From: Escherichia coli
Lineage (GTDB): Bacteria; Pseudomonadota; Gammaproteobacteria; Enterobacterales; Enterobacteriaceae
DNA length: 64,000 nucleotides
Direction: 5' to 3' (one strand)
NCBI RefSeq assembly: GCF_045037415.1
Contig: NZ_CP173439.1
The notes beneath the pieces are model-generated. The model searched no databases and had not been told where the DNA came from. It worked only from the letters and a program-made list of their open reading frames with translations. The translations under genes and the position numbers were made by a program. Shown one piece after another: positions 17,869-18,354 of this stretch (the first letter of the stretch is position 1; every line of letters starts with the position of its first letter).

Positions 17869-18354
17869 TTACTCCGAGATAAAAACCTCATACTTAATAT
17901 TGCGGGCGCAATAAAAAGTGCCGTCCGTCAGATACAGTTCACGAAATCGCGTGTTATCAGAGATGTTGTCCAGCAGGGAACGTTCCGTATCGACAAATTC
18001 TTTTTGCACGCGGTAATGAACGGCGTTCTCCGTTTCAAAAGAGACATATTCCGTGGTGGCGTAGGGCTTATTTTTTGATTTCACGTACACGATATATTGC
18101 ACGGTACTGGCCGTCAGCCCCGTTTTCGCCGCGATCTCTTTGAGACTCAACGTCTCAGAGGCATAAAGCGCCTGAACCTGCGCTATGCGTCGGTGATTAT
18201 ACGCCGTCACCCGAAGGCTCAGTTTCAGCCGATAGGCCATATTCCGCACGGCGGTAATATTAGTGTGAAGCAGTTGCGCTATCTGCTCTGTCGTGAGGAT
18301 GCCCGCGTTTTCCCGCAGAATCGCAAGGCTTTCGTCGTTCCAGATAAATGCCAT
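17869..18354 (-). CDS. hypothetical DNA-binding protein (two HTH-like segments)
   Basis: 161-aa ORF with LTTEQIAQLLHTNITAVRNMAYRL and SLKEIAAKTGLTASTVQYI. Confidence 0.4.
   Translation of the reverse strand: MAFIWNDESLAILRENAGILTTEQIAQLLHTNITAVRNMAYRLKLSLRVTAYNHRRIAQVQALYASETLSLKEIAAKTGLTASTVQYIVYVKSKNKPYATTEYVSFETENAVHYRVQKEFVDTERSLLDNISDNTRFRELYLTDGTFYCARNIKYEVFISE

Follow-up and report, generated by a model that had tools for sequence, protein, structure and literature searches.

The 64,000-nucleotide stretch of Escherichia coli DNA analyzed here (hereafter the window; contig NZ_CP173439.1, assembly GCF_045037415.1) is from an IncF-type plasmid and carries a fetMP-fls iron-uptake module. 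Its last gene, flsE, encodes a 161-amino-acid (aa) protein that RefSeq annotates as "hypothetical protein" (WP_000874189.1). Our analyses show that flsE is an intact, conserved gene under purifying selection. They also suggest that its product, in which two helix-turn-helix (HTH) units and a C-terminal beta domain are predicted, is a probable DNA-binding protein. The reading that we favor, with a rough probability of 0.5, is that FlsE is an operon-linked accessory regulator of transcription that would bind DNA in a sequence-specific manner.

The gene has already been named. In the Salmonella plasmid pUO-StVR2 the cluster was called fetMP-flsDABCT, and flsE (ORF-R8) was placed between flsT and the histidine-phosphatase fragment flsF, the whole being flanked by insertion sequences (IS) (Garcia et al. 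2020, PMC7285068). In Salmonella, the module has been shown to enhance intracellular replication as well as growth when iron is restricted (PMC7285068). The window gene, equated with pUO-StVR2 flsE by position and plasmid matches, occupies the same place with no apparent difference. It is the published flsE/ORF-R8, and what we infer here is a role for it. The gene and its parts are as follows.

17869..18354, minus strand: flsE coding sequence, ATG start, 161 aa plus stop
18205..18354, minus strand: HTH unit 1 (residues 1-50), GcrA-N / sigma-70 region-4-like, of the type W..E..L..NAG..T..IA..L.TN.T.VRNMAYRL
18070..18204, minus strand: HTH unit 2 (residues 51-95), HTH_24 / HTH_IclR / sigma-70 r4-like
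17872..18069, minus strand: C-terminal part of the flsE coding sequence
18355..18378, minus strand: 24-bp gap between flsT and flsE, with the Shine-Dalgarno sequence GGAGAG at 18362-18367, 7 nt 5' of the ATG

FlsE combines two predicted HTH units with a beta domain

An earlier note on this DNA had described a 161-aa open reading frame (ORF) with two HTH-like segments, and both were recovered. Pfam models matched residues 20-44 (Sigma70_r4_2, 31.1 bits against a cutoff of 25.7), 62-89 (HTH_24, 25.0 against 21.9) and 67-88 (HTH_IclR, 24.2 against 22). An AlphaFold2 model built on an 18-sequence alignment (mean predicted local distance difference test score 83.5) placed helices at residues 7-16, 22-29 and 33-42 and at 54-65, 71-78 and 82-92. 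The predicted fold consists of two three-helix bundles (7-42 and 54-92) followed by an acidic four-strand beta domain that is essentially helix-free. No sequence similarity indicative of an internal duplication was detectable between HTH units 1 and 2. The N-terminal half of the protein is basic (isoelectric point 9.8), and the recognition helix of the first unit (residues 31-48; TN[IV]T[AV]VRNMAYRL) is the most conserved stretch in the family.

When the full model was compared to the PDB with Foldseek, nothing was found below an E value of 0.01. The weak neighbors (E >= 0.02) were tandem-HTH DNA binders, namely linked homeodomains, Cbp1, the Myb repeats of CDC5L and the paired domain of Pax6. 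When a profile of the family was run against every sequence in the PDB, there were 0 matches at E <= 10, and NCBIfam and PADLOC returned sub-threshold or generic HTH matches only. Pfam models of the HTH clan matched all family members (14/14) without pointing to a specific regulator family. Hence the domain search that the earlier note had proposed as a check assigned FlsE to generic HTH families and to no unrelated one. The beta domain gave no confident fold match, and a profile search with the C-terminal domain recovered enterobacterial relatives only, including IS-truncated Salmonella copies. Because of the HTH matches and fold, the basic N-terminal half, the conserved recognition helix and the tandem-HTH structural neighbors, we consider FlsE, which is a cytoplasmic protein, to be a probable DNA-binding protein.

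flsE is an intact gene under purifying selection

RefSeq calls the flsE ORF as a coding sequence. Homologues of 162-165 aa with 58-81% identity were found in Citrobacter amalonaticus, C. farmeri, C. freundii and others, and the MAFxW N-terminus and the protein length are kept in all of them. Nonsynonymous divergence (dN) from the Citrobacter orthologues is far below the synonymous divergence (dS), which is saturated. The dN value of flsE relative to C. amalonaticus is 0.107 with saturated dS (0.10 for its neighbor flsT), and the dN/dS ratio relative to a more distant Citrobacter is 0.20 (0.17 for flsT). At the protein level, FlsE and FlsT are both 81% identical to their C. amalonaticus counterparts, and 63% and 72% identical, respectively, to those of the more distant Citrobacter. 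An Rfam scan of positions 16500-28000 gave no RNA family, and flsE is not flanked by credible repeats, direct or inverted, of the kind that delimit a mobile unit. Taken together, the conserved homologues, the low dN relative to dS, the confident structural model and the absence of an Rfam family or flanking repeats demonstrate that flsE is a real gene.

The proportion of synonymous differences between flsE and its C. amalonaticus orthologue exceeds 0.75, i.e. saturation, against dS values of 0.7-1.2 in the neighboring operon genes. Together with the lower GC content of flsE (see below), this hints that its history or mutational regime differs from that of the transporter genes.

flsE closes an operon preceded by a Fur box

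As the earlier note had stated, flsE lies directly after the last operon gene and before a truncated agp gene. The flsT stop codon occupies 18379-18381, and on the other side agp starts at 17747, 121 bp from flsE. The 24-bp gap between flsT and flsE reads ACGACGCGTACGGAGAGATACCCA on the coding strand. A consensus scan found no terminator-like hairpin between flsT and flsE, and none after flsE. From the head of the module down to flsE, the genes code successively for an FMN_bind protein, the FTR1-family permease FetM, the P19-type iron transporter FetP, an FtrD-like membrane protein, a pair of FtsX permeases, an ATP-binding cassette ATPase and a thioredoxin-like protein.

18379..18864, minus strand: flsT, TlpA/thioredoxin-like gene directly upstream of flsE
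18851-19546, minus strand: flsC
19551-20681, minus strand: flsB
20671-21954, minus strand: flsA
21957-23336, minus strand: flsD
23440-23967, minus strand: fetP
24008-25894, minus strand: fetM
25968..25992, no strand assigned: two Fur-box matches that overlap (15/19 and 14/19 to GATAATGATAATCATTATC), some 75-100 bp 5' of the fetM start
26241..27002, minus strand: FMN_bind (NqrC-like) gene, head of the conserved module

Two Citrobacter loci (L002, from C. amalonaticus, and L003) have kept the Fur box of fetM, at 18/19 and 16/19, and a Fur box has been reported to precede the fetMP-fls cluster (PMC7285068). The Shine-Dalgarno sequence, the lack of a terminator ahead of flsE and the conserved Fur box of fetM make it probable that flsE is transcribed together with the operon and expressed mainly when iron is limiting.

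Two further sites were observed in this region. A sigma-70 promoter-like site (TGGACA, 18-nt spacer, AAAAAT) lies inside flsT at 18633-18662 on the minus strand, about 280 bp upstream of flsE; as a consensus match only, it could drive flsE independently of Fur. About 15-30 bp upstream of the Fur box, at 26009-26022 on the minus strand, stands the near-palindrome ATGATCCAGGTCAT (TGA-N6-TCA, CRP/FNR-like). It is part of a block, TTGACATTTTTATGATCC.GGTCATGTACA, common to the plasmid and the two Citrobacter loci, and may be a candidate operator for a second regulator of fetM.

The flsT-flsE order is conserved in Citrobacter and its relatives

Orthologues of flsE were found only in Citrobacter, Intestinirhabdus, Enterobacter and on plasmids, and in the plasmid, as in all recovered loci, flsE begins about 24-30 bp past flsT. 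The flsT-flsE order was observed in representative genomes of nine species, of which seven are Citrobacter and the other two Intestinirhabdus alba and Enterobacter sp. EA-1, in a scan whose peptide patterns favored orthologues over distant family members. Two chromosomal contexts were distinguished: in C. amalonaticus the module is upstream of agp, yccJ and wrbA, and in a different Citrobacter species it lies between a ROK-family gene and an HTH_17/PIN pair.

Between 17113 and 27905 the window runs collinear with the chromosome of C. amalonaticus, at a nucleotide identity of 73-84%. The sole difference in collinearity is a TauE-family gene and an ArsR-like gene, which stand between flsE and agp in Citrobacter and are absent from the plasmid. 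This collinearity, and the fact that the homology upstream of agp ends about 35 bp past the flsE stop codon, indicate that flsE is the last gene of an accessory module and not a fragment of something else. Judged from sequence comparison, IncF plasmids appear to have acquired the module from a Citrobacter-like chromosome. The two additional Citrobacter genes occupy 10568-12097 of the C. amalonaticus locus (the ArsR-like product has 235 aa and matches HTH_5/HTH_20). The plasmid counterpart of this interval is 17835-17868, where flsE abuts the agp promoter region.

flsE is widespread on IncF plasmids

The 801-bp flsE region is 100% identical to many E. coli plasmids such as pJJ1887-4, on which RefSeq annotates WP_000874189.1 between a "TlpA family protein disulfide reductase" and an incomplete "histidine-type phosphatase". 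flsE was detected in 848 of 5426 complete E. coli genomes (~15%), almost always on IncF plasmids (854 plasmid against 14 chromosomal places). No chromosomal fet-fls locus near enough for comparison was found in these genomes, in which the fetMP-fls cluster is essentially this plasmid module. The gene is also present on 843 PLSDB plasmids (among them Escherichia 808, Klebsiella 20, Shigella 5 and Salmonella 5). Of these copies, 830 are at least 99% and 840 at least 95% identical, and 835 cover at least 80% of the protein. flsE always accompanies the iron-uptake module, and its main appeal lies in this very wide carriage on clinically important IncF plasmids.

A proposed role for FlsE as accessory modulator

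In the mechanism that we propose, flsE, as the intact terminal gene of the Fur-box-preceded fetMP-fls module, would be translated from the operon mRNA, so that FlsE would be made when Fur repression is lifted. Like Myb, paired-domain and other tandem-HTH proteins, FlsE would place each of its HTH units on a major groove, and its beta domain would serve for self-association or for binding a partner. FlsE would then act as an accessory modulator, through feedback on fet-fls or control of other targets, and not as an essential activator. It is in line with a regulatory role that paralogues of flsE neighbor genes for other island regulators (CaiF/GrlA and PerC) and that one of them comes after a Fur-boxed gene for a TonB-dependent receptor. 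Through a Fur-dependent, plasmid-encoded transcription factor of this kind, extraintestinal pathogenic E. coli could couple further functions of plasmid or host to iron starvation.

Several observations weigh against this proposal. The HTH matches are generic and designate no specific regulator family. The best 14-mer motif common to the upstream regions of three independent paralogues scored 22, against 21-23 in shuffled controls, and we therefore propose no operator. The GC content of flsE is 0.49 (0.60 at third codon positions, GC3), against 0.57-0.59 for flsT through flsD. Full-length paralogues (43-55% identity) exist outside fet-fls, some of them outside iron loci, and together with the low GC this suggests a separate origin and possibly unrelated targets. 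Finally, fetMP-flsDA with its native promoter functions in Salmonella ATCC 14028, a strain without flsE, and flsE is not conserved in the fetMP-fls clusters of Yersinia, Campylobacter and others (PMC7285068). The lower GC, the absence from other fet-fls clusters and the full-length paralogues elsewhere all hint at a separate origin, and the first and last of these suggest that flsE is a later-added regulator of island type.

These observations raise a possible, though less probable, alternative in which flsE is a hitch-hiking DNA-binding gene of island or phage type that became attached to the operon. It would serve a purpose outside iron uptake (e.g. controlling other horizontally acquired genes or countering silencing), and it would be kept by linkage to a beneficial module. 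Besides the base composition (GC and GC3 below the rest of the operon) and the absence from other fetMP-fls clusters (PMC7285068), this possibility draws on the iron phenotype of the cloned genes, which does not need flsE, on the frequency of the tandem-HTH module in small phage proteins, and on the genomic setting of full-length paralogues with 43-45% identity, which reside in islands rich in IS or resembling integrative and conjugative elements (ICE), beside CaiF/GrlA, PerC or Kiwa genes and not iron genes. One group of these paralogues (L006, L007 and L014-L016; 43% identity) is always paired divergently with a CaiF/GrlA-family gene and has an MCP-signal gene behind it; the ICE-like island in which it lies carries ArdC, an N6 methyltransferase and a fimbrial usher. 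Truncated relatives of this group are named Salmonella enterica by their sources, and several are N-terminally truncated beside IS elements (L017 and L018). Another paralogue belongs to an IS66-rich island with PerC and Kiwa.

Against the hitch-hiking alternative, the tight position after flsT is kept in nine species and two chromosomal contexts, flsE has diverged much like flsT under purifying selection, and it has no promoter-sized upstream gap of its own. Moreover, a 55%-identical paralogue (P0041, within L009 7558-14308) is found among iron-type TonB-dependent receptor genes: it follows a Fur-boxed receptor gene by 211 bp and precedes a second receptor gene and a gene for a 407-aa beta-propeller that is distantly SenB-like (24% identity to the SenB of the window, E 3e-7). 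This locus is a second, independent link of the flsE family with iron-type uptake genes. The possibility that it holds cjrC-senB orthologues was rejected, since its receptors show no relation to CjrC and the 407-aa propeller resembles SenB only distantly. Were FlsE only a passenger, the understanding of the transporter would be unchanged.

A more far-reaching possibility, which we regard as unlikely, is that FlsE founds an Enterobacteriaceae-restricted regulator family that joins tandem GcrA-like/sigma-r4-like HTH units to a new beta domain. Induced through Fur on pandemic IncF plasmids, it would reprogram chromosomal or plasmid genes, possibly by bridging DNA and RNA polymerase through a Tudor-like domain. 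If true, this would amount to plasmid-host regulatory cross-talk.

It is improbable that the HTH units serve mainly protein contacts, with FlsE acting as an RNA-polymerase or sigma-factor adaptor (GcrA/CarD-type-like) that docks on the polymerase through a Tudor-like beta domain. The top Pfam match of FlsE is indeed sigma-70 region 4, and a distant repeat-HTH relative, P0068, reaches the GcrA Pfam threshold (36.1 bits against 26.9). However, the GcrA model does not match FlsE itself, which also lacks sigma region 2 and scores 15.8 bits on TIGR02937, against a cutoff of 42.9.

The earlier note had also suggested a local regulator. This remains plausible insofar as FlsE is a basic tandem-HTH protein, operon-linked and syntenic in nine species, but published complementation limits it to an accessory modulator at most. 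A 5.6-kb fragment with only fetMP-flsDA and the native promoter complements the mutant, and confers the phenotype on a strain that lacks the entire system, including flsE (PMC7285068). Since the native fet promoter works without flsE, FlsE is not an obligate activator. The idea that it is a dedicated local activator required for fetMP-fls transcription is thus largely refuted and very doubtful, in spite of the conserved synteny of this operon-linked HTH protein and of the palindrome near the promoter, which is conserved across species and has no factor assigned. In addition, the conserved Fur box already accounts for iron control, and an activator whose gene lies at the 3' end of the operon that it controls could start the circuit only if there were some basal expression. 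The complementation data may leave room for FlsE as a feedback repressor or modulator, or as a regulator of other genes.

Lastly, the view of flsE as a decaying remnant or pseudogene of another module, which the earlier note had entertained, or as a spurious ORF, might be prompted by its "hypothetical" annotation and by the truncated gene and IS elements nearby but is contradicted by its full length, collinearity with all orthologues, invariant N-terminus, dN far below dS, confident AlphaFold2 model, place inside the Citrobacter-collinear segment, lack of flanking repeats and near-identity among plasmid copies, and we give it almost no credence.

Other features around flsE

Downstream of flsE, the agp-like gene is truncated, as had been noted before: its first ~211 aa match Agp, and RefSeq labels the product "incomplete".

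17748..17834, minus strand: agp upstream region, homologous to the chromosomal agp promoter region of E. coli and Citrobacter; the interval to the flsE stop codon is only about 35 bp (17835-17868)
17113..17747, minus strand: truncated agp (flsF in PMC7285068), first ~211 codons of glucose-1-phosphatase; homology stops at ~17113

The ORF that contains this fragment (247 aa, 17004-17747) corresponds to glucose-1-phosphatase in its N-terminal part and is annotated "histidine-type phosphatase, incomplete" by RefSeq. An IS patchwork follows at 13700-17110, with an IS3-family element in two frames (14099-15313), IS5-like ORFs (15987-16965) and a 205-aa autotransporter-like fragment (15316-15933). 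It lies between the truncated agp and a pair of genes at 9740-13245, which encode a TonB-dependent receptor (753 aa), which we take to be CjrC-like, and a SenB-like protein of 424 aa. At the other end of the module, the Citrobacter-like segment (26241-27905) is longer here than in pJJ1887-4, where IS26 stands about 280 bp past the FMN_bind gene. Besides the FMN_bind gene, the segment here comprises a 168-aa Redoxin gene (27239-27745) and a portion of a DsbA-like region.

Comparison with known systems

A full-library phmmer search found only about 70 relatives. The unit-1 motif (W..EE..L..NAG..T..EIA..L.RT..AVR.KA..L) is present as two to four repeats in small proteins of phages and plasmids. 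The PHROG family phrog_323 ("transcriptional regulator, D5-like") matches residues 5-89 of FlsE with an E value of 2e-11, and the structural neighbors in BFVD are phage tandem-HTH proteins of ~100 aa, GcrA-like ones among them. These small multi-HTH proteins have in common with FlsE a unit-1 HTH followed by a sigma-r4/LuxR-like HTH unit. Unlike FlsE, they lack the C-terminal beta domain, often have three or four HTH units and do not exceed ~35% identity. A tblastn search of 50,697 phage records gave a single weak N-terminal match, and we therefore propose no close phage origin for flsE. Long repetitive proteins from the representative search (P0044, P0076, P0080, P0083 and P0101) were dropped after reading as repeat-inflated artefacts.

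Membership of the ECF sigma, GcrA, Lrp/AsnC, IclR and MarR families was rejected. FlsE resembles sigma-70 and ECF (extracytoplasmic function) sigma factors through Sigma70_r4_2, its best Pfam match and above the gathering score. However, this match spans just ~25 residues and no Sigma70_r2 match was found, which with the low TIGR02937 score excludes a sigma factor. PF07750 (GcrA), a family with DNA binding at the N-terminus and sigma-70 binding at the C-terminus, gave no match at E <= 10. Lrp/AsnC (feast/famine) proteins, the top Foldseek PDB matches, share the size and the succession of an N-terminal HTH and a C-terminal beta-containing domain, but with an E value of 0.02, a TM-score of 0.23, a root-mean-square deviation above 11 A and one HTH against two in FlsE. 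The HTH_AsnC-type score is 23.1 bits, below the cutoff of 27, and the C-terminal domain is not RAM (an alpha-beta sandwich). For IclR and MarR, the HTH segments alone match (22-28 residues each); IclR_C is absent and MarR models stay below their cutoffs. A transposase or IS remnant was discarded in view of the lack of a DDE domain and of flanking repeats, with weak HTH_Tnp and TnsD matches only. Within the broad class of HTH DNA-binding proteins, FlsE is thus a new member of narrow distribution whose C-terminal domain is unclassified, and as such is unsurprising to a specialist.

The systems closest in logic are those of FecI, PchR and YbtA, secondary regulators that are encoded with iron-uptake genes under Fur control. 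These are ECF sigma or AraC-type proteins and required activators; FlsE differs from them in that it shows no homology to them and that flsE is dispensable for the function of the cloned genes. By analogy, FlsE would share with them the arrangement proposed here, in which a regulator set by Fur is encoded beside a transport system.
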